Below are positions 32,615 to 62,525 of a DNA stretch of 64,000 nucleotides, piece after piece. The stretch's first letter is position 1. Every line of letters starts with the position of its first letter. The DNA comes from Acidobacteriota bacterium. GTDB taxonomy: Bacteria > Acidobacteriota > Blastocatellia > RBC074. The translations under genes and the position numbers were made by a program. The notes under the pieces are model-generated. The model saw nothing but the letters and a program-made list of their open reading frames with translations, did not search any database and was not told the origin of the DNA. Location of the stretch: positions 52,528 to 116,527 of the forward strand of contig JACPYM010000059.1 in the NCBI GenBank assembly GCA_016196035.1. Direction: 5' to 3'.

Positions 32615-32633
32615 CTGTTCACGAGGACCTTGC

Positions 32634-34337
32634 ATGAACCCGACCCGACCTTGGCCGAAAGCCATCGCAATTGCATTGACCCTTGCCCTTGGCGCGGCCC
32701 TTGCTCATTTCGGCGCTGCTCACTTCACGGGGAACGCACAACAGAATCCTCCGGCACCCATCACGCCACCCGCGATCACCGTTCCACCCGGCGCAGCCAA
32801 AGTCGAACAAACCACACCAGGCGCTTTGCCTGCCGCCACCATTGCTGCCAGCTTTGACGGCCTGGGCGTGGGTTTTAACGGGCCGCAAGGCACCGCCACG
32901 TTGCGCAATCCTTCGGACAACAGTCTGGCCGTTGGGCCGCAGCACATCATGCAAACGGTCAACACACGGATGGCCGTTTTCGACATGCAAGGCAAGGTGC
33001 TTTACGGCCCAGTGCCGAACAACACCGTCTTCAAAGGCTTCGGCGGCGCGTGCGAAGCGATGAATAACGGCGACACCGTGGTGCGGTACGATCAATTGGC
33101 TGGTCGCTGGCTGATCGTGATGCCCACCTTTCGGCGTGGCGCGCCGCGGCCCGACCAACCCGAACCGCCGCGCGCGGGCGAGCCAACGTTGAGCGTGCCC
33201 GGACAGCCCAATCAACCGGGCGCAGCCGCGCCGCTGTTTGTGCCGCCACGGCAAGTCGAACAGCCGCCGCAACCGCGTGGGCAGGCGGGCCAACGTCCGC
33301 CCGAACAAAAGGGCGTCTATTCGATGTGCTATGCGGTCAGCACCAGTTCCGATCCGCTGGGTTCGTATTATCGCTACGAATTCCTGCGCCCGCTCTTTCC
33401 CGATTATCCGCGCCCGGCGGTTTGGCCCGATGGCTATTACACACCGACCAGCACGGGCGATGATGTGATTCAAAAACACACCTGCGTGGCCGAACGCGAC
33501 AAGATGCTCAAAGGCGAACCCGCGCGCGAGCAATGCGTCATCGTGGATGGCGTGAACTTTCTGAACAACGCCGATCTCGACGGCCAGGCGTTGCCGCCCA
33601 AGGGCGCGCCCAACATCGTGCTGGCGGCGGGCGGCACGCAGTTGAAAAAGGTCTTTGAAGACGACGGCATCTATTTCTGGAAGTTCAAAGTGGATTGGCA
33701 AAATCCCGCCAACACCAAACTGAGCGGGCCTGAGAAAATCGCGGTCGCGCCCTATCACTACCTCTGCGACGGACAATTGACCAATTGCGTGCCGCAACCC
33801 GGCACCGAGCGGCGGCTGGATGCGCAAGGCGACAAGCTGATGGCGCGGCTGGTCTATCGCCGCATCGGCAGCCGCGAATCGGTGGTCGCGGTGCATTCGG
33901 TCAACACTGCGGCGGGTGGCGGCGGCGTGCGTTGGTATGAATTCCGCGTGAACAAAGACCGTAGCGTGAAGCTGCATCAACAGGGCACCTACGCGCCCGC
34001 TGGGTTTTTCCGTTGGATGGCCAGCCCGGCCCTGGATCGCTTCGGCAATCTCGGCATTGGGTATTCCTTCGGCGGCACGCCCAATTTTGCCGGGCAGCGC
34101 TTTGCCGGGCGGCGTGCCAATGATCCGCCGGGACAACTGACGCTGCGCGAAACGGTCCTGGTCGAAGGCGCGGCGGCGCAGAATGTCATGCGCTGGGAGG
34201 ATTACACGCAAACCGCCGTTGACCCCAGCGACGATTGCACCGTCTGGTACGTCGGCGATTATCTCAAGCAAGGCGAAACGAATTACTCCACCCGCATCGG
34301 TGCATTCAGAATGCCGGGCTGTAAGGGCAAGCCCTAA
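32634..34337 (+). CDS. Secreted Cys-rich hypothetical protein (567 aa)
   Basis: Signal peptide, Pro-rich linker, many Cys; no family recognised. Confidence 0.5.
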   Translation: MNPTRPWPKAIAIALTLALGAALAHFGAAHFTGNAQQNPPAPITPPAITVPPGAAKVEQTTPGALPAATIAASFDGLGVGFNGPQGTATLRNPSDNSLAVGPQHIMQTVNTRMAVFDMQGKVLYGPVPNNTVFKGFGGACEAMNNGDTVVRYDQLAGRWLIVMPTFRRGAPRPDQPEPPRAGEPTLSVPGQPNQPGAAAPLFVPPRQVEQPPQPRGQAGQRPPEQKGVYSMCYAVSTSSDPLGSYYRYEFLRPLFPDYPRPAVWPDGYYTPTSTGDDVIQKHTCVAERDKMLKGEPAREQCVIVDGVNFLNNADLDGQALPPKGAPNIVLAAGGTQLKKVFEDDGIYFWKFKVDWQNPANTKLSGPEKIAVAPYHYLCDGQLTNCVPQPGTERRLDAQGDKLMARLVYRRIGSRESVVAVHSVNTAAGGGGVRWYEFRVNKDRSVKLHQQGTYAPAGFFRWMASPALDRFGNLGIGYSFGGTPNFAGQRFAGRRANDPPGQLTLRETVLVEGAAAQNVMRWEDYTQTAVDPSDDCTVWYVGDYLKQGETNYSTRIGAFRMPGCKGKP

Positions 34338-34840: not shown

Positions 34841-34861
34841 GATGACTTAAGTCACTGCCAA
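34841..34861. promoter_or_regulatory. Candidate operator: GATGACTTAAGTCACTGCCAA (perfect 12-bp palindrome TGACTTAAGTCA) ~90 bp upstream of ric
   Basis: 23-nt stretch identical to 38256..38278 upstream of flavoprotein-Rieske operon. Confidence 0.45.
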
Positions 34862-34940: not shown

Positions 34941-35714
34941 ATGCAGATCAATACACAGGAAACCGTCGGACAACTGGCCGTGCATCTGCCCAGCGCGCCG
35001 CGCGTCTTTGAGCAATTCGGCATTGATTATTGTTGCGGCGGACAGCAGACGCTCGCCGCAGCGTGCGCGCAACGCCACGTGCCGCTCGACCGCGTGCTCG
35101 ATTCGCTGGCCGAAGCCGCCGAATGGCAGCAACTGGCCGGCGCGCCGCGCGATTGGCGCGGCGCGACGCTGACCGCGTTGCAGCAATTCATCGTGGACAC
35201 GCATCACGTCTTCACGCGGCAGGAATTAGCCCGGCTGGAAAAACTCGCGGCCAAAGTCTATGCCGCGCACGGCAGCCGCCACCCTGAATTGGCGCGCTTG
35301 CAAGAACTGTTTTTGCAACTGAAGGAAGAATTGTTGCCGCACATGCTGAAAGAAGAGCAGGTGCTTTTCCCGTATGTGGCGCGCTTGGAAGAAGCCGCGC
35401 AGGCAGGCCAGCCCGCGCCGCCAGCCTTTTTCGGCACAGTCAATCAGCCGGTGCGGATGATGATGCGCGAACACGACACGGCGGGCGACTTGCTCAAGGC
35501 ATTGCGCCAGACGGCGGGCGATTATGTCGTGCCTGCCGATGCTTGCCCAAGTTTCCGCGCGTTGTATCAGGCTCTGCCCGAACTCGAAGCCGACCTGCAT
35601 CAGCACATTCATTTGGAAAACAATTTGCATTTCCCGCGCGCGGTCGAACTCGAAGCGCAACTCGCACCTGAATTGCAAAGCATGACGCAAGCGTTCCGCT
35701 GTCTGGGGCATTGA
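34941..35714 (+). CDS. ytfE: Iron-sulfur cluster repair di-iron protein (RIC / YtfE / ScdA family)
   Basis: N-terminal ScdA_N 'FGIDYCCGG' motif followed by hemerythrin-like His/Glu-rich repeats; GGAGG RBS. Confidence 0.8.
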   Translation: MQINTQETVGQLAVHLPSAPRVFEQFGIDYCCGGQQTLAAACAQRHVPLDRVLDSLAEAAEWQQLAGAPRDWRGATLTALQQFIVDTHHVFTRQELARLEKLAAKVYAAHGSRHPELARLQELFLQLKEELLPHMLKEEQVLFPYVARLEEAAQAGQPAPPAFFGTVNQPVRMMMREHDTAGDLLKALRQTAGDYVVPADACPSFRALYQALPELEADLHQHIHLENNLHFPRAVELEAQLAPELQSMTQAFRCLGH

Positions 35715-35741
35715 ACGCCAGACAGCGGAATCGAGGTAACT

Positions 35742-36572
35742 ATGGACATCAACGCCGTTCGCACCATCGCGCGGCAAGAGCTGGTCATCAACATCCGCAA
35801 CAAATGGACGTTAATTTTCGCCTGTGTCTTCGGCGGCTTGGTGCTCACCATTTCCTATTTCGGGATGTTGACGGCGGGTGCGATTGGCTTTCAGAGCTTC
35901 GCGCGCACCTCGGCCAGCTTGCTCAATCTGGTGTTGTATATCGTGCCCCTCGTCGCGTTGACGATGGGCACGCTCAGTTTTACCAGCGAGAAAAGCCTGA
36001 GCGAGATGCTCTTTGCCCAACCCGTCACGCGCACCGAAATCCTGTTGGGGAAACTGGCTGGGTTGTTCGCTTCGATTCTGACGGCAACGCTAATCGGTTT
36101 CGGGCTGGCGGGTTTCATCATCGCGTCGAAAGCGGGCACGCAAGGGTTGCTGCGCTATCCGGTGTTCGTCGCGTTGTCGTTGCTGCTGGCCTTGGTCTTT
36201 CTGACGCTGGCGGCGCTGGTGTCGTCGTTGTGCCAGCGCAAGACCAAGGCGTTCGGCGTGGTGATGTTCCTCTGGTTCTTCTTCGTTTTGTTTTATGACC
36301 TGCTGGTGATCGGCGTGACGTTTTTGCTGAAAGAACACGCGGCCAATCAATTTATCTTCGCCTCGCTGTTTGGCAATCCGGTGGACATGGTGCGCGTCGC
36401 CAGCCTGATGGTGCTGGATGGGAAGGAAGTCTTTGGCGCGGCGGGCGCGGCGCTCACCAGGTTTTTGGGTGGTGAAACGGCGAGCCTGTCCTTATTGATC
36501 GGGGGCTTGGTTGTTTGGACAGTCGTGCCGTTTCTGGCCGCGCGGCGTTTGCTGCAACGGCAGGATATTTAA
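35742..36572 (+). CDS. nosY: ABC-2 type permease, NosY-like (nitrous oxide reductase maturation transporter permease)
   Basis: 6-TM ABC-2 permease whose pattern ('IARQEL..IRNKW', 'TEILLGKLAG') matches NosY as I remember it; the only nosY candidate near nosDFL. Confidence 0.65.
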   Translation: MDINAVRTIARQELVINIRNKWTLIFACVFGGLVLTISYFGMLTAGAIGFQSFARTSASLLNLVLYIVPLVALTMGTLSFTSEKSLSEMLFAQPVTRTEILLGKLAGLFASILTATLIGFGLAGFIIASKAGTQGLLRYPVFVALSLLLALVFLTLAALVSSLCQRKTKAFGVVMFLWFFFVLFYDLLVIGVTFLLKEHAANQFIFASLFGNPVDMVRVASLMVLDGKEVFGAAGAALTRFLGGETASLSLLIGGLVVWTVVPFLAARRLLQRQDI

Positions 36573-36665
36573 CGCTGATGTTTTGATGCGCCGCGTCTTT
36601 GGAGCGCGTGCGGCACCGGCTGCCGCTTTGGCATCTCTTTGATCGTTCATACATCAAGGAAATAC

Positions 36666-36840
36666 TAGAGCGGTTTGCAGTTGCGTTTACGGGAGTCAGT
36701 TGACATTGGGACAGTACCGCGCGCGTGAGCAAGTGGCGCGTCAAGCTTGCCCCCTTGGCTGAATTGCCAAAGCGCCGCTTGCTCACGCGCGCGGTACTGT
36801 CCCGCTGCGCGGTTTTCCCGTACACCGTAGTGAAAACCGC
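36666..36840. repeat. Family B element copy B2 (inverted orientation, no tandem expansion)
   Basis: Termini are reverse complements of B1 termini; internal gacagtaccgcgcgcgtgagcaagtgg / ccgcttgctcacgcgcgcggtactgtc inverted arms. Confidence 0.7.
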
Positions 36841-36922
36841 TCTGAAGCGGCAGCCGGTGCCGCACGCACTCCAAAGGCTGCGCCTAGCCGATTTGCCCTC
36901 ATGGAATCGCGGGTAAATAACA

Positions 36923-38113
36923 ATGAAGCGTTGGCATAGCATCCTGGCAATCCTCTTCGTCCCGCTCCTCGTCGCGGGCGGCGGATTGCTAGTGCGGCAT
37001 CTCGCGCGCGAACGCACCGAACGCGGCCATTTCGAGCGTAGCGAAACCGAGTTGATGGTGACCAATCTGGCGCGCGTGCCGGTGCAGTTGTTCAAAGCGG
37101 GCCGTAACTTGGCCGAGGCGCAACTGCTCAATGATTTCGACGGCGCGCGCCGCTGGCTGTCAGGGGGCAATCACTTTCTGAAAGCCAACTTCCCCCACCG
37201 CGAAGTTTTTTATCCTATTCCTCTCATCGGTTATCGGCGCGGCCCCGATGCCGAAGGTGCATTCATCATCACAATTCGTTCGCTGAATGAGATGGAACCG
37301 CCAAGCGCAGCCAACGGGCAACACGGCTGGGCGTTCATCCCGAATGGCAGCTTCCTGTTGGGCGACCGGCAAAACCCGCGCGAGCCGCATTATGTCTGGC
37401 TGCCAGGCTTTTTCATCGGCAAGTTTGAAGTGAGCAATGCCGAATACACCGAGTTTCTACGCGCTCCGCAGGGCTACGCTGACGATGCGCAGTGGACGGA
37501 AGCCGGGCGCGTATGGAAGGCCGCGAATACTTCGCAAAGCAGCGCCTTGCTCAAATCGGTTGCGGCGGAATTCGAACGCTTCGGCCAACCCGATCAGCCG
37601 GTGACGGGGGTAACGTGGTTCGAGGCGCAAGCCTATTGCCGCTGGCTGACCAGTCGCTTTGGCGAACGGAAATGGCTTTACGCGCTGCCTTCAGAAGCCG
37701 AATGGGAAAAGGCTGCACGCGGGCCAGATGGTTTTGATTTTGCGCTTAGCCAGACGCTCAGCGATCAAGAGGTACAGCTTTACAATTGGAGGAAGAACCC
37801 CGACGCGCCCGTCACAGTCGTCGGAGCAGCCGAAACGCCCGCGCTTTATCTACCAAACCGCTTCGGCATTTTTCACCTCGGCGGCAATGTCGTCGAGTGG
37901 ACGAGTTCGATCACCAACCCCTTTAATCGCGAACATCTTTACCTCGATGAAGAGCGCAACCGCCTCGAAGGCGGTGAAGAGCGCGTGGCGCGTGGCGGTT
38001 CGTGGTATAGCGCGAGCATCGCCTTGCTGGGTGTGGCCTATCGCGACTCGTTTCGGCCTGAGATCACGCATCACGATTTGGGCTTTCGCATCGTGGCGCG
38101 ACCGCTGCCCTAA
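36923..38113 (+). CDS. FGE-sulfatase (SUMF1/formylglycine-generating enzyme) domain protein with N-terminal membrane anchor; NirV-like
   Basis: 'GVTWFEAQAYCRWL', 'LPSEAEWEKAARG', 'RGGSWYS' FGE-domain motifs. Confidence 0.75.
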   Translation: MKRWHSILAILFVPLLVAGGGLLVRHLARERTERGHFERSETELMVTNLARVPVQLFKAGRNLAEAQLLNDFDGARRWLSGGNHFLKANFPHREVFYPIPLIGYRRGPDAEGAFIITIRSLNEMEPPSAANGQHGWAFIPNGSFLLGDRQNPREPHYVWLPGFFIGKFEVSNAEYTEFLRAPQGYADDAQWTEAGRVWKAANTSQSSALLKSVAAEFERFGQPDQPVTGVTWFEAQAYCRWLTSRFGERKWLYALPSEAEWEKAARGPDGFDFALSQTLSDQEVQLYNWRKNPDAPVTVVGAAETPALYLPNRFGIFHLGGNVVEWTSSITNPFNREHLYLDEERNRLEGGEERVARGGSWYSASIALLGVAYRDSFRPEITHHDLGFRIVARPLP

Positions 38114-38257
38114 CCTGGGAGCGCAGGCATCCCGCCTGCCGTCAAACAAAGCCGCGTAGCATCCTTATCTTGACGAAAAGGGTAAGGATGCTGCGCGCTT
38201 TTCTTATTTGCAGGCGGGACGCCTGCGCCCCCAGGAAATGCAAATAAATTTCGCACC

Positions 38258-38278
38258 GATGACTTAAGTCACTGCCAA
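38258..38278. promoter_or_regulatory. Candidate operator copy 2: GATGACTTAAGTCACTGCCAA ~150 bp upstream of flavoprotein gene
   Basis: Identical to 34841..34861. Confidence 0.45.
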
Positions 38279-38423
38279 CCGCCGCCCACCCGCGTAATTT
38301 ACGCTTTGACCAAGACCAACAATCCGGTCAGTTCCCTTCGACCCACTCGCGGAAGTCAGTGCGAGCCGAGCCGAATTTACGCAATCCAGGTAGCCCGAAA
38401 TTGGGCGGTTTGAGGCTGGCGCT

Positions 38424-40355
38424 ATGAGCGACTTCAAGTACAAGACCATCCTTCCCGACATTGAATTTTGGAAAGCTATGGTGCCTTGCCAGGCGGCGTG
38501 CCCGGTCAATACCGATGCGGGCCGCTATGTGCAACTGATCGCGCAGGGCAAATTTGAAGACGCCTATTTCGTCGCGCGTTCGCCCAATCCGTTGGCTTCG
38601 GTGTGCGGGCGCATCTGTGCCGCGCCGTGTGAAGACCGTTGCCGACGCGGCAAGATAGACGCGCCCGTCAGCATTCGCGCGTTGAAGCGCTTCGTCACCG
38701 AACGTTACGGCGTCGAATCGCTCGCGCCCGATACGCAGGATCAATTGCGCGTGGGCCACGGCGATTTGGGCAACAAGGTGCGCGGGCATTTGCCGATCTT
38801 GCAAGCCAATCGCCGCCAGACGCCGCGCGGGCAAAAAGTCGCCGTCATCGGCGCGGGGCCTGCCGGGCTGGCTTGCGCGCACGATCTGGCGTTGATGGGT
38901 TATCGCGTGACGATTTTTGAAGCCACCGAACAAGCGGGCGGGATGATGTTTCATGGCATTCCCGAATTCCGCTTGCCGCGCGCCGTCATTGCCAAAGAGA
39001 TAGACAAGATCGAACAGCTCGGCGTCGAGATTCGCTACGGCACGCCGCTGACGGCTGAGTTCGGGTTGCAGGAATTGAAAGCGGATGGCTACGTCGCCGT
39101 CTTCCTCAGCGTCGGCGTGCAAAAAGGCCGCGACCTCAATATCGAAGGGGCCGAACTCGACGGCGTCATCAAAGCCGTGGATTACCTGATCAACATCAAC
39201 AACGGTTACCGCATGCAGTTGGGCAAGAAGGTGCTCGTCATCGGCGGCGGCTTCGTCGCCTTTGACGCCGCGCGGCTGGCGTTGCGCGCAGGGTTGGAGG
39301 CAGGAGGTGAACAGGATGAAGGCGCAGGTGAATTGAAAACCGCCCTCGACGCTGCGCGCGCCGCCGTCAGAGCAGGTGCGACCGAAGTACATATGGTCAG
39401 TTTGGAATCCTTTGACGAATTGCCGGTGATGCGCACGACGCAGGGCAAGGAAGAGTTTGAAGAGGCGCACCGCGAAGGCATCGTCTTTCATCCGCAACGC
39501 AGCGCGCGCCGCTTCGTCAGCCGCAATGGCCGCGTGCAGGCAGCGGAATTCAAAGGCGTCAAACGCACCTATGACGAACAGGGCCGCTTCAGTCCGCAAT
39601 TCGACGAAGACTTTAGCGAAACGCTGGAAGCCGATTCGGTGATTCTCGCCATCGGCCAGCAAGCCGATCTCTCGTTCATCAAACCCGCCGACGGCGTCGA
39701 GCTTACGCCGCAAGGCACGATCAAGGTGGAGCGCGCGACGCTAGCGACGAGTGCGCCCGGCCTCTTCGCGGGCGGCGACGTGGCGTTTGGCCCGCGCAAC
39801 TTGATCGAAGCCGTGGCGAACGGCAAACGCGCGGCGCTCTCGATTGACGATTACTTGCACAGCGCCGAGACGCACACGGTTTTCAACCTGACGGTCGAAC
39901 GACTGCCCAATCGCACCTATACGATGCCGGAAGAGTATGAGCAACTGGCGCGGCATACCCCGCCGACCATCGCGCTCGACCGCCGCACCGGCATCTCGGA
40001 AGTCGAGACCGGCTACAACGAAGCGCAGGCGCGTGAGCAGGCTGAACGCTGTTTGTCGTGTCACATCCAAACCATCTATGACCCGGCGAAATGCGTGCTG
40101 TGCAACCGCTGTGTGGACGTGTGCCCGGAATACTGTTTGAAGCTGGTGCCGCTGGATGAGCTTGATCTGGATGAACCGACGAAGGAACGCATCGTGGCTG
40201 ATTCGGGCATCACGGTCGAGTTGGGGCAACCCTTATCAGCAATGATCAAAGACGATGACAAGTGCATCCGTTGTGGTTTGTGCGCGCTGCGCTGCCCGAC
40301 GGACGCGATGACGATGGAGGTCTTCTACTATGAAGAGCAAGCAGTCGTGGCTTAA
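38424..40355 (+). CDS. GltD/NfnB/SudA-like NAD(P)H-dependent FeS flavoprotein oxidoreductase with C-terminal 2x[4Fe-4S] ferredoxin domain
   Basis: N-terminal Cys-cluster domain, 'VAVIGAGPAGLACA' FAD and 'VLVIGGGFVAFDAA' NAD(P) Rossmann motifs, C-terminal 'CVLCNRCVDVCP' and 'CIRCGLCALRCP'; 3' end overlaps Rieske gene. Confidence 0.75.
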   Translation: MSDFKYKTILPDIEFWKAMVPCQAACPVNTDAGRYVQLIAQGKFEDAYFVARSPNPLASVCGRICAAPCEDRCRRGKIDAPVSIRALKRFVTERYGVESLAPDTQDQLRVGHGDLGNKVRGHLPILQANRRQTPRGQKVAVIGAGPAGLACAHDLALMGYRVTIFEATEQAGGMMFHGIPEFRLPRAVIAKEIDKIEQLGVEIRYGTPLTAEFGLQELKADGYVAVFLSVGVQKGRDLNIEGAELDGVIKAVDYLININNGYRMQLGKKVLVIGGGFVAFDAARLALRAGLEAGGEQDEGAGELKTALDAARAAVRAGATEVHMVSLESFDELPVMRTTQGKEEFEEAHREGIVFHPQRSARRFVSRNGRVQAAEFKGVKRTYDEQGRFSPQFDEDFSETLEADSVILAIGQQADLSFIKPADGVELTPQGTIKVERATLATSAPGLFAGGDVAFGPRNLIEAVANGKRAALSIDDYLHSAETHTVFNLTVERLPNRTYTMPEEYEQLARHTPPTIALDRRTGISEVETGYNEAQAREQAERCLSCHIQTIYDPAKCVLCNRCVDVCPEYCLKLVPLDELDLDEPTKERIVADSGITVELGQPLSAMIKDDDKCIRCGLCALRCPTDAMTMEVFYYEEQAVVA

Positions 40356-40947
40356 CGCGCGAATTTCAAATTTGAGAGCGAAGACAGAAACCGAGCAACA
40401 GCGGCTGGAGCGCCTCAAGCAGGAAGTTCTGGGCGAAGGCGAAGCCGCCAGCCGGCCCACGCGGCGCTCCTTTCTCACGCGGCTCGGGTTCGGCGCGACG
40501 CTGCTGGCGCTCGCTGGGCAGGCCTACGCCTTCCTGCGCTCGCTCAAACCGAATGTGCTGTACGAAGCGCCGCAACGCTTCAAGGTCGGCACACCCGATC
40601 AATTCGGCGAAGGCGGCAAATTCCTCGAAGACAAACGCCTGTTTGTGTTTCGGCAAGGCAAGACGTTTTACGCCATCTCGGCAAGCTGCACGCATCTGGG
40701 CTGCACGGTCAAAATGGAGAAGCTCAACCAGCCGAAGAAGGTCAAGACGCGCCAGCGCGAATTCGAGGAGCAATACGAATTTCATTGCCCTTGCCACGGC
40801 TCGAAGTATTACGGCGACGGGACGAATTACGCCGGCCCCGCGCCGCGCCCGCTCGATTATTTCAAACTCGAACTGGCGGCAGAGGACGGGCAATTGATCG
40901 TGGATATGGAGCAGAAGGTCGGGCAGGACTTTCGCTTGACAGTGTAG
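40330..40947 (+). CDS. Rieske [2Fe-2S] protein with Tat signal
   Basis: 'RRSFLTRLG' Tat motif; 'CTHLGCTV' and 'CPCHGSKY' Rieske boxes. Confidence 0.8.
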   Translation: MKSKQSWLNARISNLRAKTETEQQRLERLKQEVLGEGEAASRPTRRSFLTRLGFGATLLALAGQAYAFLRSLKPNVLYEAPQRFKVGTPDQFGEGGKFLEDKRLFVFRQGKTFYAISASCTHLGCTVKMEKLNQPKKVKTRQREFEEQYEFHCPCHGSKYYGDGTNYAGPAPRPLDYFKLELAAEDGQLIVDMEQKVGQDFRLTV

Positions 40948-41032
40948 CCGGGGACTAGCGGCTAGGGACTAGGGGCTGGAATTAAGCCACTGTCGCTAGC
41001 CCCTAGCCCCTGGCCTCTAACCCCTAAAAATT
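40948..41032. repeat. Intergenic CTAGGGG/CCCCTAG repeat hairpin (Rieske-cyt b spacer)
   Basis: gggactagcggctagggactaggggctgg ... gctagcccctagcccctggcc. Confidence 0.5.
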
Positions 41033-42349
41033 ATGGCAGCGAGAAAATCAACTTGGGAAAAGATCACGTGGACGTGGCAGCCCGCGAGCGAGCGCGAAGC
41101 CGGGGATTCCATCGTGCGCAACTTTTTGCTGCATTGGTTTCCGGCCAAGGTCGCGCGCGAAAGCCTGTCGTGGGGCTACTCGTTCTGGCTCGGTACGGTG
41201 TCGGCGGTGCTCTTTCTGATCCTGACGATCACGGGCGGCGTGCTGATGTTTCTGTACGTGCCGTCGGTCGAACGTGCCTATTTGTCGGTCAAGGATTTGG
41301 AATTCACCGTCTCGTTCGGCTGGTTCCTGCGCGGGCTGCATCGCATCGGCGCGCACCTGATGGTGGCGTTTGTGTTTGTGCATATGGTGCGCGTCTTCCT
41401 GACCGGCGCGTACAAGAACGGCACGGCGACGCAGCAGAACCGTCCGTTGAACTGGGTGATTGGCGTCGTGCTGTTGTTGGCGACGTTGCTGCTCTCATTC
41501 ACCGGTTATCTATTGCCGTGGGATCAACTGGCCTATTGGGCGATCACCGTCGGCACGAATATCGCCAGCGCCGCGCCCGTCGTGGGCGAGGCAATGCGCT
41601 TCATTTTGCTGGGCGGCAACACGATCGAGCAAGGCACGCTGATTCGTTTTTACGTGCTGCATTGTTTCTTCCTGCCGCTGCTGGTGCTGGCGTTGTTCTC
41701 GTATCACATGTGGCGCGTGCGCAAAGACGGCGGCTTGGCTTGCGTAGACAAACAGGCGCTCGACCAAAAGCGCGAAAAGGTCGTGCCGAGCAAGAGCAAG
41801 ACCTATTCGCTGCTGGGCATTGCGAGCGGCGCGTCCGTGCACGTTGAGACTTCGCTGGTGGATGAAGTCCAGCACACGGTGCCGTCATCGCCCACGCTGA
41901 CGCGGCGTTTGGCGTTGGTGACGATGGTGACGCTCGCGCTCTCTTCGGTGTTGACACTGCTCTTCCATGCGCCGCTCGAAGCCGCCGCCAACCCTGCCGT
42001 CACGCCAAATCCGGCCAAAGCGCCTTGGTACTTTCTCTGGTTGCAAGAACTGGTCACGATCACCACCTTTACCGTGGGTGGTTACACCATCAATGGCGCG
42101 TTGATCGGCGGCATCATTATTCCAGGCTTGTTGGTCGCGGCGGCCATCGCGTGGCCCTACTTCGACAAGAGTTCGGTGCGCTCGGTGGGCGTGTGGTTTG
42201 CGCCGGAGCGCCGCAAGCAGAATTTGATTTTCTTGCTGGTGGTCGCGGGGATTTTGCTCTTCACCATCATCGGCACGTATCTGCGCGGGCCGTATTGGAA
42301 TTGGTATTGGCCGTGGCAAAGCTGGCCGGTGATGCCGCGTAAGTTTTGA
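41033..42349 (+). CDS. Cytochrome b (b6/bc-type, quinol-oxidising subunit)
   Basis: Polytopic; 'HRIGAHLMVAFVFVHMVRVF' bis-His heme-ligand helix typical of cytochrome b. Confidence 0.8.
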   Translation: MAARKSTWEKITWTWQPASEREAGDSIVRNFLLHWFPAKVARESLSWGYSFWLGTVSAVLFLILTITGGVLMFLYVPSVERAYLSVKDLEFTVSFGWFLRGLHRIGAHLMVAFVFVHMVRVFLTGAYKNGTATQQNRPLNWVIGVVLLLATLLLSFTGYLLPWDQLAYWAITVGTNIASAAPVVGEAMRFILLGGNTIEQGTLIRFYVLHCFFLPLLVLALFSYHMWRVRKDGGLACVDKQALDQKREKVVPSKSKTYSLLGIASGASVHVETSLVDEVQHTVPSSPTLTRRLALVTMVTLALSSVLTLLFHAPLEAAANPAVTPNPAKAPWYFLWLQELVTITTFTVGGYTINGALIGGIIIPGLLVAAAIAWPYFDKSSVRSVGVWFAPERRKQNLIFLLVVAGILLFTIIGTYLRGPYWNWYWPWQSWPVMPRKF

Positions 42350-42436
42350 AGATGGGGGGCAGGGGGGCCAGGGGCCAGTGAATTCAAGCCCCAGCCCCCA
42401 GTCCCTAGACCCCAGCCCCCAAGATCGGAGGTTTTA
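42350..42436. repeat. Intergenic G-tract/C-tract hairpin (cyt b-cyt c spacer)
   Basis: ggggggcaggggggccaggggccag ... ccccagcccccagtccctagaccccagccccc. Confidence 0.5.
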
Positions 42437-43660
42437 GTGTTCAGCAAAGACGCCATCAAAATTTACCTGCTCGGTGTGGTGATGCTGGCCGTGACGGGGT
42501 TCATTTTCTGGGACAACGTGCTGCCTGAATGGAGCGGCTATCAGAGCGATTTCCGCGCGCTGGTCGCCAAGAAATTCGGCGCGGCGCGCGCGGCGGCGGT
42601 GCCCAGCGGCCTGCATCAGATTTGGGTGAAAGACCTCGACCGCGTAGACCGTTGCACGACCTGTCATCAGGGCATGGAATGGAAAGGCCTGGAAAGCGCC
42701 GCGCAACCGTTTCGTTCGCACCCCACCGAAATTCTGAAAGCGCATCCGCTGAATCAATTCGGCTGCACGGCCTGTCACGGCGGGCAAGGTTATGCCACTG
42801 ATCTCGCCGGCGCGCACGGGCAGGTCGAACATTGGGAAGAGCCGCTGCTCGGCAAAAAAGTCAGCGACACCTATCTGGTCAAAGACAAGAAAGCGCTGAT
42901 GCAGGTCAATTGCAATTCCTGTCATCGCTATGAACGCGAAACCAAAGGCGCCGATTACATCAACGAAGCCAAGCAAATCGTGCAGGAAAAAAACTGCCGC
43001 GCCTGCCACACCATCAACGGACGCGGCGGCACCATCGGCCCCGACCTCACCAACGTCGGCGACAAAGCGCCGGAGCAATACGATTACGGTCACGTGTCGG
43101 GGGTGAAAACAGCGTTCGCCTGGCATGTCGCACATTTGCAAAAACCGAAAGCGATGACGCCGGATACGGTCATGCCCGATTTCAATTTCTCTACGCGGCA
43201 GGCGCAGGCGTTGTCCTTGCTTGTCATGAGTTGGAAACGCGCGACGGTGCCGACGCGCTACATCCCCGGCGCGACGCCCAAGGATGTGCCGACGGCGGAA
43301 GAGATCGCCAAAGAGAAACGCATGCTCGAAGGCGAAGGCGCTTTCTTCGTCAAGAAGGGCTGCTTTATCTGCCATTCCGTGGATTCGCTGGGTATTGAGA
43401 ATTCGGCCAAGATCGGGCCGGATTTGTCCGAGGCTGTAACGGACGTGCAGAGCCGCTTTGGCCGCACGCTGGAAGATTTTTTGAAAGCGCCCAACGGTAC
43501 GATGGCCGTGGTGTTGGCGACACAGATTCATTTGACTGACGACGAGAAACGCGAGGCGGTCGAACGTTTGAAGATCGCTTATCAACGCAAGCAGGAGGGC
43601 GCGAAGCCGAACGCTGCGCCCACGCCTGCGGCCTCGCCGTCACCGGTAGCGAAGAAATAA
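42437..43660 (+). CDS. Membrane-anchored pentaheme c-type cytochrome
   Basis: Five CxxCH motifs (CTTCH, CTACH, CNSCH, CRACH, CFICH); N-terminal TM helix. Confidence 0.75.
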   Translation: MFSKDAIKIYLLGVVMLAVTGFIFWDNVLPEWSGYQSDFRALVAKKFGAARAAAVPSGLHQIWVKDLDRVDRCTTCHQGMEWKGLESAAQPFRSHPTEILKAHPLNQFGCTACHGGQGYATDLAGAHGQVEHWEEPLLGKKVSDTYLVKDKKALMQVNCNSCHRYERETKGADYINEAKQIVQEKNCRACHTINGRGGTIGPDLTNVGDKAPEQYDYGHVSGVKTAFAWHVAHLQKPKAMTPDTVMPDFNFSTRQAQALSLLVMSWKRATVPTRYIPGATPKDVPTAEEIAKEKRMLEGEGAFFVKKGCFICHSVDSLGIENSAKIGPDLSEAVTDVQSRFGRTLEDFLKAPNGTMAVVLATQIHLTDDEKREAVERLKIAYQRKQEGAKPNAAPTPAASPSPVAKK

Positions 43661-43803
43661 CCTGGGTTCGCACGCTTCCCAGCGTGCTGTAAAAAAGTCG
43701 CGCAGCGTTCCGAATAAATTCAATTGGGTCGCACGCGATTTAGGGAAAAGGAAGGCTGCGCCGCTTCTTTCATAGCACGCAAGGATGCGTGCGTACCCAG
43801 GGA
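43661..43803. repeat. Family A palindromic element, degenerate copy A4
   Basis: cctgggttcgcacgcttcccagcgtgctg ... gcgtgcgtacccaggg. Confidence 0.6.
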
Positions 43804-43878
43804 AAGGCTGCAACTCCGCGCCGCTCACGGGTTGAAGCTTGACCATCAACCACCGTTCCCATTTGGGGAGGAACCACC

Positions 43879-45744
43879 ATGGAATTACAAACAACAAAAC
43901 TTGATCGCAAGAAAATGAAATGGCTCGGCGCAGGAGCGGTCTGCGTCGCGCTGCTCGGCTTTGCTTTGACCAGTTGCGGCAAGCAACCAAGCACTGCTGA
44001 ATTGGGCGGCACTGCGGAAGCTGCTGCGGCCACTTATGTCGCGCCGGGCGACACCGATGAATATTACCTGTTCTATTCGGGCGGCCATTCGGGCAACGTC
44101 TATGTTGCGGGCGTGCCTTCGATGCGGCACATCTCGACGATTCCCGTGTTTGCGCCTTACCCGGCGACGGGGTATGGCTTTGACGAAGAGTCGAAGAAGA
44201 TGCTGGGCGGGTTCACATGGGGCGACGTGCACCACCCGGCCATCAGCGAGACCAAGGGCGATTACGACGGGCGTTGGCTCTTCGTGAATGACAACGCCAA
44301 CAATCGGCTGGCGCGCATTGACCTGCGCGATTTCAAAACCAAACAGATCCTGGGGCCGATGCCGAATATCTCCGGCTATCACGGCGGTTCGTTCGTGACG
44401 CCTAATACGGAATACGTGTTGGCGGCCTCGCGCTTCTCGGTGCCGTTGCCGAAAGGGACCGTCGAACCGATTGAAAGTTATGCGACGAAATACCACGGGG
44501 TCGTGGCGGGCGTAAAAATTGATCCGACCTCGGGCGAGATGAGCGTCGGTTTTCAAATCCTGATGCCGCCCTTCAATTTTGATTTAGGCGACGCGGGCAA
44601 AGGGCCGAGCGAGGGCTGGGCCTTCTGGACGTGCTACAACTCAGAACGCGCGACCGGCAAGCTCGAAGTGACTTCGACACAAAAAGACCGCGACTACATT
44701 GCAGCGGTGAATTGGAAAGAAGCTGAGAAAGCCGTCGCCGCAGGCAAAGCCAAAATGATCAGCGGCGTGCCGGTGCTTGATCCCAAAGAAGTGCCGGGCA
44801 TCGTTTATTTCGTGCCGTGCAGCAAATCGCCGCACGGCGTGGATGTCACGCCCGATGGCAAATACTTCATCGGCAGCGGCAAGCTGCAATCCATCACGAC
44901 GGCGTTCAACGTCGAGAAGATGCTGACCACGATTCAGAACAAAGATTTCACCGGCAACGAAGACGGCATCCCGGTGCTGAATTACGACAAGGTCAAAGAC
45001 GCCGAAGTCAACGTCGGCCTCGGCCCGCTGCATACGCAATTCGACAATGAGGGCAATGCGTATACCAGCCTCTTTGTCGAGAGCGCCGTGGCGAAATGGA
45101 AGCTTGGCACGTGGGAAGTGCTCGACAAGATTCCAGTTACGTACAACATCGGCCACCTCTGCGCGGCGGAAGGCGACACAGTTCATCCCGCTGGCAAATA
45201 TCTGGTCGCGCTCAATAAGCTTTCGCACGGACGCCACCTGAACGTCGGCCCCTCGCAGCCGGAATGCTCGCAACTCATCAACATCGGCGGCGAAAAGATG
45301 AAGCTGCTCTACGACGCCTTCACCGAACCCGAACCGCATTACGCCCAGATGATCAAGGCCGACAAGCTGAAACCCTTCGAGGTTTATCCCAAAGAAAGCA
45401 ACAAGAACCCGAACGCGATCTGGGACGTGAAGGACGCCAGCGTGGTGCGCAGCGGCAACAACGTCACGGTCAAGCTGGTCGCGGTGCGCAGCAGCTTCGA
45501 GCCCAACAAGATCGAGGTCAACAAAGGTGACACAGTGACGATTCACATCACCAACATCGAACAGACCACCGATGAGCTGCATGGCTTTGGGCTGCTCGAT
45601 TACAACATCAACGTGGTGATAGACCCCGGCGAGACCAAGACGATCAAGTTCGTGGCCGATAAACCGGGTGTTTTCGCCTACTATTGCACCAACTTCTGCT
45701 CGGCGTTGCATCAAGAGATGCAGGGCTATTTGTTGGTGAAGTAG
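43879..45744 (+). CDS. nosZ: Nitrous oxide reductase NosZ (clade II/Sec-dependent, lipoprotein-type signal)
   Basis: C-terminal CuA motif 'CTNFCSALHQEMQGY'; 'LTSC' lipobox rather than Tat motif; size ~620 aa. Confidence 0.9.
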   Translation: MELQTTKLDRKKMKWLGAGAVCVALLGFALTSCGKQPSTAELGGTAEAAAATYVAPGDTDEYYLFYSGGHSGNVYVAGVPSMRHISTIPVFAPYPATGYGFDEESKKMLGGFTWGDVHHPAISETKGDYDGRWLFVNDNANNRLARIDLRDFKTKQILGPMPNISGYHGGSFVTPNTEYVLAASRFSVPLPKGTVEPIESYATKYHGVVAGVKIDPTSGEMSVGFQILMPPFNFDLGDAGKGPSEGWAFWTCYNSERATGKLEVTSTQKDRDYIAAVNWKEAEKAVAAGKAKMISGVPVLDPKEVPGIVYFVPCSKSPHGVDVTPDGKYFIGSGKLQSITTAFNVEKMLTTIQNKDFTGNEDGIPVLNYDKVKDAEVNVGLGPLHTQFDNEGNAYTSLFVESAVAKWKLGTWEVLDKIPVTYNIGHLCAAEGDTVHPAGKYLVALNKLSHGRHLNVGPSQPECSQLINIGGEKMKLLYDAFTEPEPHYAQMIKADKLKPFEVYPKESNKNPNAIWDVKDASVVRSGNNVTVKLVAVRSSFEPNKIEVNKGDTVTIHITNIEQTTDELHGFGLLDYNINVVIDPGETKTIKFVADKPGVFAYYCTNFCSALHQEMQGYLLVK

Positions 45745-45750
45745 TGAGGA

Positions 45751-45884
45751 GACCTCAGACCTCAGACTTCAGACCACAGACCTCAGACCTGTCTTGGATC
45801 GGCGGCCACAGGCGAATTGAGATCGTAGGTCTGAAGTCTGAAGTCTGAGGTCTGAGGTCTGAAGTCTGAGGTCTGAGGTCTGTG
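45751..45884. repeat. Heptamer-repeat hairpin: (CAGACCT)n arm, ~35-nt loop, (AGGTCTG/AAGTCTG)n arm ending at nosB-like start codon
   Basis: gacctcagacctcagacttcagaccacagacctcagacctg ... aggtctgaagtctgaagtctgaggtctgaggtctgaagtctgaggtctgaggtctg. Confidence 0.8.
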
Positions 45885-46517
45885 ATGAAAAGCTGGCTCG
45901 ACAACGCGAACCATTTTTTTGAACTGCCGCTCACGCTGCGCAGCCGCGTGCTGATTCTGGTGGGTGTAGTGCTGTTGACGCCGGTCTTTCTGTTCCCCTT
46001 GTGGAATATGACCTTCAAGTCGAATCAGTATCTCGACGGACTGACGCTCAACATTTACGCCTATCAACTCAAAGGCGGCATGACGCCGAACCGCGATGAT
46101 TTGCGCGAGATCAACTCGCTCAATCATTACATCGGTATGCGTCCGCTGTTGGAAAGCGATTTCGGCGAATTCGTCTGGATTCCCTTTGTCATCGGGGTGC
46201 TGGGCGTGCTGGCGTTGCGCGCTCTGGTCATCGGCAAGATGGCCGGGCTGGTGGATGTCTTTGTGATCTTCACCTATTTCGGGCTGTTCTCGTTCTGGGG
46301 CTTTTACAACAAGCTCTATGCGTATGGACACCATCTTGATCCGACGGCGGCGATCAAGGTGCCGCCGTTCACCCCGCCGCTGCTGGGGACGCAAGTCGTC
46401 GGCAACTTTACGGTGTCGAGCTATCCGGGCGTCGCGTCGTTTGCGCTGGTGTCGTTTGCCGTGTTGTTGCTGGCGGCCATCTTTCTGTCGCGCAAGCAGA
46501 CGAACGAGGCGGCGTGA
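45885..46517 (+). CDS. Polytopic membrane protein, NosB-like (clade II nos accessory)
   Basis: 4-5 TM helices, position directly downstream of nosZ and 4-bp overlap with nosD; assignment by synteny. Confidence 0.5.
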   Translation: MKSWLDNANHFFELPLTLRSRVLILVGVVLLTPVFLFPLWNMTFKSNQYLDGLTLNIYAYQLKGGMTPNRDDLREINSLNHYIGMRPLLESDFGEFVWIPFVIGVLGVLALRALVIGKMAGLVDVFVIFTYFGLFSFWGFYNKLYAYGHHLDPTAAIKVPPFTPPLLGTQVVGNFTVSSYPGVASFALVSFAVLLLAAIFLSRKQTNEAA

Positions 46518-47914
46518 TGTGGCGCAATGTCATCGGGCTGGTTTTGCTGGGAACACTGAGCGCGTTGGCAGTGCGGGCCGACACCTTCACGGTTGGCCTG
46601 CCGCCCGCGCGCTTTCAAGCTTTGACTGACGCCCTTATTGCCGCTCAGCCCGGCGATATTGTGCAAGTTCAACCCGGCACTTACACCGGACAATTCCGGC
46701 TCGACAAACCGCTGACCTTGGTTGGCATTGGCAAACCCGTGTTGCACGGTACAGGCCAGGGCAGCGTCGTAATCATCACGGCTGATCATTGCACCGTGCG
46801 CGGGTTCGTTATCGAACACAGCGGCGGTGATCTGACCGCCGAAGATTCCGGCCTGCTGCTCAAAGCGGATGACAATCTGATCGAAGCGAACGAATTGCGC
46901 GATGTGCTTTACGGCATTTACCTATACCACGCCAGCCGCAACACGCTGCGCGGCAATACGGTGCGCGGGCGGCGCGAACTTGAATTGGGCGAACGTGGCG
47001 CGGCGCTGCACCTCTGGGATTCGCCCGACAACATCATCGAAGACAACACCATCGGTGATGCGCGCGATGGGCTGTACATCCAGGCTTGTTCGGGCACGCT
47101 GGTGCGGCATAACCGTGTGCGCGACGTGCGCTACGGCCTGCATTACATGAACTCGGACGACAATCGGTTTGAGGACAATCTGTTTGAACACAACGTGGCG
47201 GGCGCGGCGATTATGTATTCGCGGCGCATCACGCTGCGACGCAATGCCTTCGCACACAATCGCGGCTTCAGTTCATTCGGCATTCTCTTTCAGGATTGTG
47301 ACGAGATCGTGGCCGAAGAGAATTTCATCATTGATAACGCGACGGGCATTTTTATCGAGGCCCTGCGTAAGAGCAGCTTTCGCCGCAACGTGATCGCCGA
47401 GAATGATCTGGCCTTGCAAATGTTCAGCAACGCCGATCAAACGCTGTTTGCCGCGAATAACTTCGTCGAAAATCTCAGTCCATTGCAGGTCGTCGGCAAA
47501 CGCACCAACGCTGTTTGGCAGGTCAACGGGCAGGGCAATTATTGGAGCGATTACGCCGGTTACGACCTGGACGGCAACGGCATCGGCGATGTGCCGCACA
47601 AGGTGCAAAACGTTTTTGAATACCTCGAAGGCAACTATCCGCGCTTGCGGCTTTACCTGAACAGCCCCGCCGCGCAGGCGTTGGCTGCGGCTGAACAGAG
47701 CTTCCCGATTCTCAAAGGCGCAAACGAAGCCGATACCGCGCCGTTGATGCAGGCCGTCAAGTTGCAGTTCCCGTTGGAAGTGGTGCCGCTGCAAACCGCG
47801 CCACGTCGCGCGACGCAATGGCTGCTGAGTCTCTGCTCATTGCTTAGCGCCAGTGGAGCGTTGTTTGTCATGTGGAAACATCGCCAGCCGCGCGGCGCCA
47901 AGGCAGGAGCCTGA
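46514..47914 (+). CDS. nosD: Periplasmic copper-binding right-handed beta-helix protein NosD
   Basis: Signal peptide, parallel beta-helix repeats ('NxIxxN' ladders), operon position before nosF. Confidence 0.85.
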   Translation: MMWRNVIGLVLLGTLSALAVRADTFTVGLPPARFQALTDALIAAQPGDIVQVQPGTYTGQFRLDKPLTLVGIGKPVLHGTGQGSVVIITADHCTVRGFVIEHSGGDLTAEDSGLLLKADDNLIEANELRDVLYGIYLYHASRNTLRGNTVRGRRELELGERGAALHLWDSPDNIIEDNTIGDARDGLYIQACSGTLVRHNRVRDVRYGLHYMNSDDNRFEDNLFEHNVAGAAIMYSRRITLRRNAFAHNRGFSSFGILFQDCDEIVAEENFIIDNATGIFIEALRKSSFRRNVIAENDLALQMFSNADQTLFAANNFVENLSPLQVVGKRTNAVWQVNGQGNYWSDYAGYDLDGNGIGDVPHKVQNVFEYLEGNYPRLRLYLNSPAAQALAAAEQSFPILKGANEADTAPLMQAVKLQFPLEVVPLQTAPRRATQWLLSLCSLLSASGALFVMWKHRQPRGAKAGA

Positions 47915-47915
47915 A

Positions 47916-48836
47916 ATGAGTATTCACGTAAACCATCTGACCCGCCGGTTTGGCGAACACGTTGCCGTCAACGATGTCTCGTTTGAGATCAAACCGGGCG
48001 AAACCTTTGCGCTGCTCGGGCCGAATGGCAGCGGCAAAACCACCACGTTGAAATGCATCGTGGGCTTGCTCGAACCGACGGCGGGACAAATCCAGATCAA
48101 CCAACTCGATGTTTGGAAAGACCCGCATCAGGCGCGGCGGTTATTCAGTTACTTGCCGCAGCGCGTCGCGTTCCCCGACGGCTTGACGGCGCGCGAAGTG
48201 CTGCAATTTTATGCTGATCTGCGCCAGCTCGCGCCGCAACGCGTAGACACAATCCTCAGCGGCGAACGCTTCCACTTCAACGGCTTCACCGACAAACCGG
48301 TCGGCAAGTTTTCGGGCGGCATGGTGCAACGCCTGGGCCTCGCCGTCGCCTGCCTGCCCGATGCGCCCGTGCTGTTGCTGGATGAGCCGACGGTGAGTCT
48401 TGATCCCGAAGGCGCGCTACGCTTCCGCGCCTTTCTGCAAGCGCTCAAAGCAGAAGGCAAGACGATTGTGTTCACTTCGCACGTGCTGGCCGATGTCGAA
48501 CAACTGGCCGACCGCGTGGCGATTCTGGTGGGCGGCAAACTGGTCGCCATCGAATCCATCACCGCTTTGCGCGAAGGGCTGATGCGCAGCAGCCGCATGC
48601 GCGTCGTCTTGCGCGCGCCGCAGCCATCCTTGCAAACGGCCGCGCTGACGGCAGGCGCGAGCGAAGTTTTGGTTGAAGGCGAATCCTTGCTGATTGTTTC
48701 GCGCCCGGAAGACCGGTTGGAGATTTTGCGGGCGCTCGAAAACAACGGCGGGCACGTCGAGCGCTTTGCCACTGAAGAGCTTTCGCTGGAAGACATCTAT
48801 CTGCGCTACATCGAGGAATCAGCAACACACGTGTGA
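47916..48836 (+). CDS. nosF: ABC transporter ATP-binding protein NosF
   Basis: Walker A 'GPNGSGKTT', signature 'FSGGMVQRLGLA', Walker B 'LLLDEPT'. Confidence 0.85.
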   Translation: MSIHVNHLTRRFGEHVAVNDVSFEIKPGETFALLGPNGSGKTTTLKCIVGLLEPTAGQIQINQLDVWKDPHQARRLFSYLPQRVAFPDGLTAREVLQFYADLRQLAPQRVDTILSGERFHFNGFTDKPVGKFSGGMVQRLGLAVACLPDAPVLLLDEPTVSLDPEGALRFRAFLQALKAEGKTIVFTSHVLADVEQLADRVAILVGGKLVAIESITALREGLMRSSRMRVVLRAPQPSLQTAALTAGASEVLVEGESLLIVSRPEDRLEILRALENNGGHVERFATEELSLEDIYLRYIEESATHV

Positions 48837-48839
48837 ATT

Positions 48840-49298
48840 ATGCCGAGACCGTTTGAGAGAAAACACTGCGTCATTCTTTTTGCCGCAGCCCTCTGGCTGC
48901 TCGCGGCTTGCCAAAGCCACAAACTGGAACCCGCCGCCCTGTCGCCTGAAGATATGTGCACCGATTGCAAGATGGCGATTTCAGAAAAGCAATTCGCCGC
49001 GCAATACCTGACCAAAGATGGCGAGGCCGTTAAATTCGATGACCTCGGCTGTCTGGCGCGTTATCTGAAAAGTCACCCGCAACAACGCGCCGAAAGCGCG
49101 GCCTTTTTCGTGATGGATTACGAAACGAAACAATGGCTCAACGCCGAGTCCGCGTTTTACGTCAACTCCGATAAATTCCAAACGCCAATGCGTGGCGGCT
49201 TTGCGGCCTTCAGTACACGTCAACGCGCCGAGGCCGCTGCTGCTGCCAAACAAGGCCGCTTGTTCACTTGGCAGGCAGTGCTGACCAACGCCAAATAG
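48840..49298 (+). CDS. nosL: Copper chaperone lipoprotein NosL
   Basis: Lipobox 'LLAAC', 'CTDCKMAIS' Cu-binding region, ~150 aa, follows nosF with 3-bp gap. Confidence 0.8.
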   Translation: MPRPFERKHCVILFAAALWLLAACQSHKLEPAALSPEDMCTDCKMAISEKQFAAQYLTKDGEAVKFDDLGCLARYLKSHPQQRAESAAFFVMDYETKQWLNAESAFYVNSDKFQTPMRGGFAAFSTRQRAEAAAAAKQGRLFTWQAVLTNAK

Positions 49299-62424: not shown

Positions 62425-62525
62425 AAAATTATCTCTCCCACGAAGCCACACGCAGAAACCGAGAGACGACTTTTTCTTCGTGCTCCTTCGTGCAACTTCG
62501 TGGGAGGTTCTCCGAAAGCTTGCGT

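Follow-up and report, generated by a model that had tools for sequence, protein, structure and literature searches.

The 64-kb stretch of DNA analysed here (hereafter the window) belongs to a metagenome-assembled genome (MAG) of the Blastocatellia (Acidobacteriota) and carries, between 34.9 and 49.3 kb, a complete clade II nitrous-oxide respiration cluster of the Rieske/cytochrome b type. In this region, every long open reading frame (ORF) with family support lies on the + strand, as judged from the ORF listing and from family scans (Table 1). The gene in question is nosY, coding for the permease of the NosDFY copper-delivery complex. It is located at the head of the cluster, 27 nt downstream of ric (ytfE), and 11.3 kb separate its stop codon from the start of nosF. 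An earlier note on this DNA had drawn attention to a NosY-like ABC-2 permease gene directly 3′ of ric and to a nosF ending 3 bp before nosL with no permease between the two. Both statements agree with the coordinates: nosF, stop codon included, extends to 48836 and nosL begins with the ATG at 48840, leaving a 3-nt gap and no space for a permease.

Table 1. Genes and features of the nos region (positions in the window)
Feature	Position	Strand	Evidence and remarks
Box 1	34841..34861	+	GATGACTTAAGTCACTGCCAA, palindrome core TGAC-N4-GTCA; starts 100 nt upstream of the ric ATG; putative Crp/FNR-type operator of ric-nosY-FGE
ric/ytfE, di-iron Fe-S cluster repair protein, 257 aa	34941..35714	+	TIGR03652 229.8 bits (cut-off 204.7); ScdA_N PF04405 and Hemerythrin PF01814
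Hairpin over the ric stop codon	35692..35733	+	-28.1 kcal/mol, z = -4.7; no U-tract after it
nosY, ABC-2 permease of the NosDFY copper-delivery complex, 276 aa	35742..36572	+	PF12679 87.2 bits (cut-off 27.2)
Nested palindromic element in the nosY-FGE spacer, REP/MITE-like, 280 nt	36597..36876	.	inverted repeats I2, I3, I7
FGE-sulfatase-domain protein, 396 aa	36923..38113	+	PF03781 138.8 bits; N-terminal membrane anchor or signal
Intrinsic-terminator-like hairpin, 19-bp stem	38148..38207	+	followed by CUUUUCUUAUUU; top of the terminator scan; -35.1 kcal/mol, z = -6.3
Box 2	38258..38278	+	same sequence as box 1; begins 166 nt before the ATG of the Fe-S flavoprotein gene; putative operator of the electron-transfer/nos unit
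GltD-like Fe-S flavoprotein, 643 aa, first gene of the electron-transfer module	38424..40355	+	Pyr_redox_2, Fer4_20, Fer4
Rieske [2Fe-2S] protein	40330..40947	+	PF00355
Cytochrome b, fused b6 and subunit-IV-like parts	41033..42349	+	PF00033, PF13631; hydropathy, 7 hydrophobic segments
Membrane-anchored c-type cytochrome, 407 aa	42437..43660	+	PF00034; 5 CXXCH motifs
nosZ, Sec-dependent (clade II) nitrous-oxide reductase	43879..45744	+	TIGR04246 905 bits (cut-off 625)
nosB-position membrane protein, 211 aa	45882..46517	+	position after nosZ; 3-4 hydrophobic segments
nosD, periplasmic beta-helix copper-binding protein	46514..47914	+	TIGR04247 416 bits (cut-off 300); PF05048
nosF, ABC ATPase	47916..48836	+	PF00005; likely ATG 47916, ORF opens with GTG 47853
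nosL, lipoprotein copper chaperone	48840..49298	+	PF05573 59.8 bits; lipobox LAAC
RskA-type anti-sigma factor, 266 aa	49471..50271	+	family scans

The assignment to clade II is based on several features of the cluster. NosZ scores only 484 bits against TIGR04244, under the cut-off of that model, and its N-terminus is devoid of a twin-arginine (RR) motif. The protein encoded directly after nosZ has no Pfam or NCBIfam match, and a homologue occupies the same place directly 3′ of nosZ in nearly all of 80 related loci; nosB is a hallmark of clade II, the general cluster features of which have been described (PMC11096178). For NosF, the best full-length single-domain match in the PDB is NosF 7o0y_B (E 1.4e-42, alignment from residue 24), and the retained ATG lies 1 nt past the nosD stop codon. 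The electron-transfer module (Fe-S flavoprotein, Rieske protein, cytochrome b and cytochrome c) is syntenic with that of Anaeromyxobacter and of other Acidobacteriota, synteny of the Fe-S flavoprotein gene extending to at least 30 loci.

When NosY and NosF were searched against the window with tblastn, exactly one copy of each was found; the same search of the 64 kb revealed neither a relic of nosY 3′ of nosL nor a second permease or ATPase of the NosY/NosF type. The window therefore has one permease without a neighbouring ATPase, and one ATPase together with NosD without a permease. The ORF that follows nosL was considered as a displaced nosY and ruled out, family scans identifying its product as an RskA-type anti-sigma factor.

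The identity of the permease was examined by structure-database, synteny and tree comparisons. Among all PDB entries (phmmer), its sole match is Pseudomonas stutzeri NosY 7o0y_D (E 1e-24), with residues 4-273 of 276 aligned to residues 2-273 of 276 and no other match at E<=1. It has about six hydrophobic segments (Kyte-Doolittle) and no fused ATPase, and its orthologues bear the JGI label 'Cu-processing system permease protein'. No NCBIfam model matched at E<=1e-3; since NosL is likewise unmatched, the library probably has no models reaching clade II NosY and NosL. Orthologues with 72-78% identity are located directly 3′ of nosL in four related loci (loci of relatives are designated by L numbers): L001 (identical to L008, GCA_046331565.1), L009, L010 and L012. 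In L001, nosY (78% identical to that of the window) begins 1 nt past the nosL stop codon. This level is in line with those of the other proteins compared between the window and L001 (NosZ 83, NosB 69, NosF 68, NosD 67, FGE-like protein 58 and NosL 51%).

A neighbour-joining (NJ) tree was computed from 45 NosYs and rooted on that of P. stutzeri; in it, the permease falls with those of L002 and L006 into a group whose sister is formed by the nosL-adjacent NosYs of L012, L001 and L009. The earlier note had held that clustering with non-Nos ABC-2 permeases would speak against a NosY; in this tree, which comprised NosYs only, the Blastocatellia proteins, including that of the window, nest within nos-linked NosYs from other phyla. 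The NosZ NJ tree is congruent in shape. As for selection, the ratio of nonsynonymous to synonymous substitution rates (dN/dS) for nosY is 0.07-0.13 among relocated copies (see below) and 0.175 against the non-relocated L001, compared to ~0.10 for nosZ, figures which are rough as dS (0.6-1.8) is close to saturation. nosY is under purifying selection as strong as that on nosZ. The PDB match, the nosL-adjacent orthologues, the tree and the dN/dS values together point to a genuine NosY, encoded by the cluster's own nosY gene. Besides the near saturation of dS, two points have to be counted against this assignment: the NJ trees of NosY and NosZ carry no support values, and a second nosY elsewhere in the source genome is conceivable, the search having covered the window.

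Could the permease be a generic ABC-2 exporter subunit foreign to the Nos system, so that the cluster has no NosY, the real nosY lying elsewhere or NosZ maturation being impaired? Its position 11 kb away from nosDF, the breadth of the PF12679 family and the lack of an NCBIfam model naming it would be compatible with such a case. We nevertheless consider it very improbable: the one match in the PDB is a full-length one to NosY, orthologues stand directly 3′ of nosL in sister genomes, the protein is placed among nos-linked NosYs, its dN/dS equals that of nosZ, and neither the permease has an ATPase beside it nor nosF a permease.

Gene order was then compared among relatives. GTDB representative genomes were scanned with the window NosZ (best match 88%), and gene order was mapped with the window proteins. 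The order nosD-nosF-nosL-nosY after nosZ-nosB was found in 26 distinct loci, which span other Acidobacteriota, Anaeromyxobacter (L025, L027), Kryptonia, Ignavibacteria, Bacteroidota MAGs, Zixibacteria, Calditrichia and Desulfomonile. The order nosF-nosY-nosL was met in a single locus (L032), and a more distant group of Bacteroidota, Gemmatimonadota and Ignavibacteria has nosL-nosD-nosF-nosY. The earlier note had taken nosD-nosF-nosY-nosL as the usual order, broken in the window. This does not hold: since nosF-nosL-nosY is the norm in this NosZ subclade, the adjacency of nosF and nosL is no break. It is normal in related clade II loci, which should not be measured against the clade I order nosDFYL, and what is unusual is the position of nosY only.

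At least seven independent assemblies, drawn from four sources (JGI, NCBI, ENA and Logan), show the relocated order. With the electron-transfer module abbreviated as ET, it reads YwiC-ric-nosY-FGE-ET-nosZBD in L090 (NosY 82% identical to that of the window), Crp-YwiC-hemerythrin-ric-nosY-ET-nosZBDF in L006/7 (83%), Crp-ric-qNor-nosY-ET-nosZBDF in L002/3 (86%; qNor, quinol-type nitric oxide (NO) reductase), box-(ric remnant)-nosY-FGE-box-ET-nosZ in L089 (88%) and nosY-ET-...-nosBDFL-RskA-GDPD in L088 (95%). The short Logan contigs L004/5 carry ric-nosY with a NosY 100% identical, and in L011 nosZBDFL is followed by 4.6 kb without nosY. In L002, the qNor gene (7631-9922, NorB_cytochrome_c-like and COX1 domains) forms a ric-norB-nosY unit. 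In two Ignavibacteria, the sole NosY-like tblastn match lies 4-7 kb downstream of nosF (L077 21357, L083 9266) and is weak (27-28% identity); these may be cases of nosY separation in other lineages or unrelated ABC-2 permeases.

An artefact of assembly or binning would be the trivial explanation, given that the source is a MAG and that one relative, L088, has a suspicious cytochrome b/nosZ fusion. The recurrence of the same order in independent assemblies from four sources, among them short Logan contigs in which ric-nosY is covered with 100% identity, makes it extremely unlikely. The fusion in L088, the closest long relative, is a single ORF (13582-14951) with cytochrome b, nos_propeller and cupredoxin domains. 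By tblastn it comprises only the beginning of cytochrome b and the C-terminal 263 residues of NosZ, cytochrome c being missing; an apparent deletion of ~3.5 kb joins cytochrome b to nosZ and reflects cluster decay or else misassembly.

In the NJ trees of NosY and of NosZ alike, the relocated clusters form a monophyletic group, the simplest reading of which is that nosY moved once, in an ancestor of this Blastocatellia subclade. The moved unit is larger than nosY. An FGE-like gene trails nosY in non-relocated clusters (L001, L010, L012, L018, L031) as well as in relocated ones (window, L089, L090), and the unit that moved is therefore the nosY-FGE pair. Later on, L002, L006 and L088 lost the FGE-like gene, ric disappeared or decayed in L088 and L089, and qNor became inserted in L002. 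The earlier proposal of a rearrangement among the genes of the copper-centre maturation transporter is upheld in this form: nosY, with the FGE-like gene, passed from after nosL to before the electron-transfer module.

The upstream nosY might also be a xenologue acquired by horizontal transfer, the original copy after nosL having been lost. Repeats flank the unit (see below), and the left cluster border differs from that of relatives, a carbohydrate-utilisation locus taking the place of Crp-YwiC. The NosY and NosZ trees are congruent, however, the closest non-relocated NosYs are those of the sister Blastocatellia clade, and the identity level agrees with that of the other nos genes. On the congruent trees and even identity levels we rejected horizontal replacement, to which we attach a very small probability.

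We turn now to expression. The 21-nt sequence GATGACTTAAGTCACTGCCAA occurs exactly twice in the window, with 0 copies expected by chance, once upstream of ric (box 1) and once upstream of the Fe-S flavoprotein gene (box 2); its core TGAC-N4-GTCA has 3 occurrences in the 64 kb, both boxes have the form (A/G)TGAC-N4-GTCAC, and the two sites agree over 23 nt. Relatives share this box. In L001, L002, L004, L012 and L089 it precedes ric, as does a variant of it in L006; L002, L006 and L089 have it 5′ of the Fe-S flavoprotein gene, in the interval that starts at nosY or at the FGE-like gene, and in other Acidobacteriota (L015, L019, L034) it likewise precedes the Fe-S flavoprotein gene. A TACACT hexamer (34878-34883) starts 29.5 nt downstream of the centre of box 1, and a TAATTT hexamer (38296-38301) 30.5 nt downstream of that of box 2. 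This box-to-TAnnnT spacing would fit class II Crp/FNR promoters, in which a palindromic operator with two 5-nt half-sites 4 nt apart has its centre about 41.5 nt ahead of the transcription start.

Downstream of the first box, nosY is very probably transcribed together with ric: the gap between them is 27 nt with no U-tract, the box lies upstream of ric, and a strong terminator is met only after the FGE-like gene. The hairpin over the ric stop codon is possibly an mRNA-stability or processing element between the two genes. The hairpin after the FGE-like gene is the strongest terminator-like structure of the region and the probable end of the ric-nosY-FGE transcription unit. We propose that a first unit (box 1-ric-nosY-FGE-terminator) and a second one (box 2, from the Fe-S flavoprotein gene to nosL) form one regulon, in which a single Crp/FNR-family regulator acts on both through their shared TGAC-N4-GTCA box; since this box heads both units, co-expression would have been kept despite the split. 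Candidates for the regulator of GATGACTTAAGTCAC would be the Crp-family gene found beside ric, in divergent orientation, in L001, L002 and L006, or the Crp-family ORF 62490..63230 of the window (cNMP_binding and HTH_Crp_2). The latter lies 13 kb downstream of the cluster and its product is 26% identical to the ric-neighbouring Crp of relatives.

Several observations weigh against this regulatory scheme. The canonical FNR/DNR site TTGAT-N4-ATCAA, searched with 1 mismatch, has 7 matches in the window and none in the promoter regions; an FNR-consensus match at 34938 overlaps the ric start codon. As no canonical site is present in the promoters, the box is a variant half-site (TGAC) relative to the FNR consensus. 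Generic sigma-70 and terminator scans gave no more sites than shuffled sequence; of these, the top hairpin alone was retained once it had been folded. The terminator hairpin belongs to a nested palindrome resembling repetitive extragenic palindromic (REP) sequences, and may exist because of that element. Finally, the two transcription units, their promoters and the link between regulator and box are all suggested by sequence.

Such palindromes also bear on the structure of the moved unit. The nosY-FGE spacer measures 350 nt in the window versus 12 nt in L089 and 8 nt in L090: a REP-like palindrome has been inserted between nosY and the FGE-like gene in the window lineage. More generally, nested palindrome families, resembling REPs or miniature inverted-repeat transposable elements (MITEs), fill the intergenic spacers 34370-34789, 36597-36876, 38114-38235 and 45750-45881, with arms of 22-39 nt and 79-97% complementarity. 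These spacers are the borders of the ric-nosY-FGE unit and the nosZ-nosB gap. Further copies were found in the window (26805-27074, 7706-7789), in L001 (12367-12457) and in L006 (4386-4421). The palindromes coincide in position with the rearrangement junctions.

The earlier note had further proposed that expression of NosY is coupled to an NO-stress/Fe-S repair gene. Co-transcription with ric is likely in the window, as described above, and that part stands. Functional coupling does not follow, for ric linkage is inconstant and ric also heads clusters with an unmoved nosY. In the sister clade, ric occupies the head of the nos cluster (L001, L009, L012), preceded by the same box in L001 and L012. 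Among clusters with a relocated nosY, L088 has no ric, L089 keeps only a remnant of it, and in L002 qNor stands between ric and nosY. What is left of ric in L089 (9823-9970) is 27 codons from its C-terminus, preceded by the conserved box and immediately 5′ of nosY; here a deletion took out ric and spared the promoter and nosY-FGE. The constant feature is nosY lying upstream of the electron-transfer/nos operon, not nosY adjoining ric. ric has the appearance of an ordinary component of the local denitrification regulon rather than of a partner of NosY, and since its linkage varies among relatives, a special coupling of NosY to NO stress is not needed.

A related alternative is that the relocated NosY, with the FGE-like protein and Ric, gained a new role (e.g. 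metal or NO-stress-related export) and no longer serves NosDF. An apparently separate transcription of nosY with ric and the FGE-like gene, and a nosY-FGE pairing that outlived the relocation, are what would be expected. No rate acceleration is seen, however, the dN/dS among relocated copies being lower than that against the non-relocated L001. Moreover, 78% identity to nosL-adjacent orthologues is retained, L088 and L089 do without ric, and L002, L006 and L088 without the FGE-like gene, and such a change would leave NosF and NosD without any permease. We hold a new role to be improbable.

FGE-like genes beside nosY are found, apart from the window, in L001 (11106-12323), L089 (11042-12229) and L090 (10840-12030). 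In the C-terminal 'RGGSW...' region, where FGE carries its Cu-binding pair, the window protein has no cysteines and is thus probably not a catalytic FGE. Comparison with the PDB yielded generic FGE/PorK/EgtB-fold matches only. The FGE family includes NirV of nirK operons (10.1101/2021.05.21.445229), and the protein may be a NirV-like accessory of copper-enzyme maturation. A bolder idea would be that copper loading of NosZ is gated by an NO-responsive Crp/FNR regulator independently of nosZDFL transcription, the FGE-like protein being an unrecognised maturation factor of clade II NosZ in Acidobacteriota. On this view, the relocation would have given NosY, the membrane subunit without which NosDFY cannot form, and the NirV-like FGE protein that accompanies it a promoter of their own, in common with the NO-damage-repair gene ric (and, in L002, qNor). 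We regard it as speculative and rather unlikely.

The neighbourhood of the cluster differs on its two sides. To the right, the RskA-type anti-sigma gene has no extracytoplasmic function (ECF) sigma-factor gene immediately beside it and is followed in the window by a GDPD gene; the order nosL-RskA-GDPD is shared with L088. To the left (16872-34343), a carbohydrate-utilisation locus comprises DUF5695, an arabinofuranosidase, a GH31 enzyme, an AraC regulator and a 1288-aa CarboxypepD_reg and OMP beta-barrel (TonB-dependent-like) protein. It replaces the Crp-YwiC-hemerythrin border of relatives. Also on this side, a 567-aa ORF (32634..34337) has no family match and faces an equally long ORF on the opposite strand.

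Taken together, it is likely that the window carries a complete clade II nos cluster in which nosY-FGE was relocated from the tail to the head, in one Blastocatellia subclade. The ancestral order would have been [FeS-Rieske-cyt b-cyt c]-nosZ-B-D-F-L-Y-FGE, in which nosY-FGE followed nosL; the pair would then have moved to its present place at the cluster head, with ric on one side and the electron-transfer module on the other. The route may have been either transposition of nosY-FGE, or a tandem duplication of the cluster together with its box, each copy then losing what the other kept; the second route would explain the duplicated box. In the literature summary and PDB entry names, NosF2Y2 with periplasmic NosD is an ABC-type complex taking Cu(I) from NosL and maturing NosZ. 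With a permease lacking an adjacent ATPase and an ATPase plus NosD lacking an adjacent permease in the window, we infer that NosY pairs in trans with the NosF and NosD encoded 11 kb downstream to form NosDFY, which would receive Cu(I) from the lipoprotein NosL and mature NosZ.

These findings leave the known mechanism of NosZ maturation unaffected; their value is first one of annotation. Blastocatellia are abundant soil Acidobacteriota, and pipelines or readers expecting nosDFYL would call these members nosY-less and doubtful N2O reducers, though the cluster is complete. Three leads emerge: the TGAC-N4-GTCA box, which probably defines a nos/ric regulon of Acidobacteriota; the FGE-domain (NirV-family) gene that stayed attached to nosY through the rearrangement; and what appears to be a natural case of one NosDFY subunit encoded on a different transcript from its partners.

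Among known systems, the Anaeromyxobacter-type clade II cluster (L025, L027) resembles that of the window in gene set, Sec-type NosZ, electron-transfer module and nosZ-B-D-F-L core order. It differs in that nosY and the FGE-like gene of the window are upstream of the electron-transfer module instead of after nosL, with ric at the head. In the sister Blastocatellia (L001/GCA_046331565.1, L009, L012), arranged as ric-cyt c-nosZ-B-D-F-L-Y-FGE, orthologues are 51-83% identical, ric is likewise headed by a box and nosY and the FGE-like gene are adjacent, but the pair remains after nosL. Their locus has no Fe-S flavoprotein, Rieske or cytochrome b genes; a 132-aa cytochrome c (3920-4318 in L001), homologous to the C-terminal part of the 407-aa cytochrome of the window, is kept between ric and nosZ. 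The NosDFY-NosL machinery of P. stutzeri (PDB 7O0Y series; clade I, nosRZDFYL) has homologous NosD, NosF, NosY and NosL, NosY and NosF aligning over the full length, and is presumed to share the same mechanism, copper passing from NosL to NosD within NosDFY and then to NosZ. The window, by contrast, has a clade II cluster with Sec export, nosB, no nosR or nosX, another gene order and a nosY on a probably separate transcript. Maturation genes transcribed apart from nosZ have a precedent in Methylacidiphilum caldifontis IT6, where nosC1BZC2 and nosYFDL are expressed as separate groups (PMC11102522); there the whole nosYFDL stays together, whereas here only nosY is split from nosDFL. The order nosBDLYF of Schinkia (PMC13274427) is another example of variable maturation-gene order. 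A literature search for the present Blastocatellia arrangement returned nothing specific. Set beside these systems, the arrangement is a lineage-specific permutation of a known system and not a new kind.

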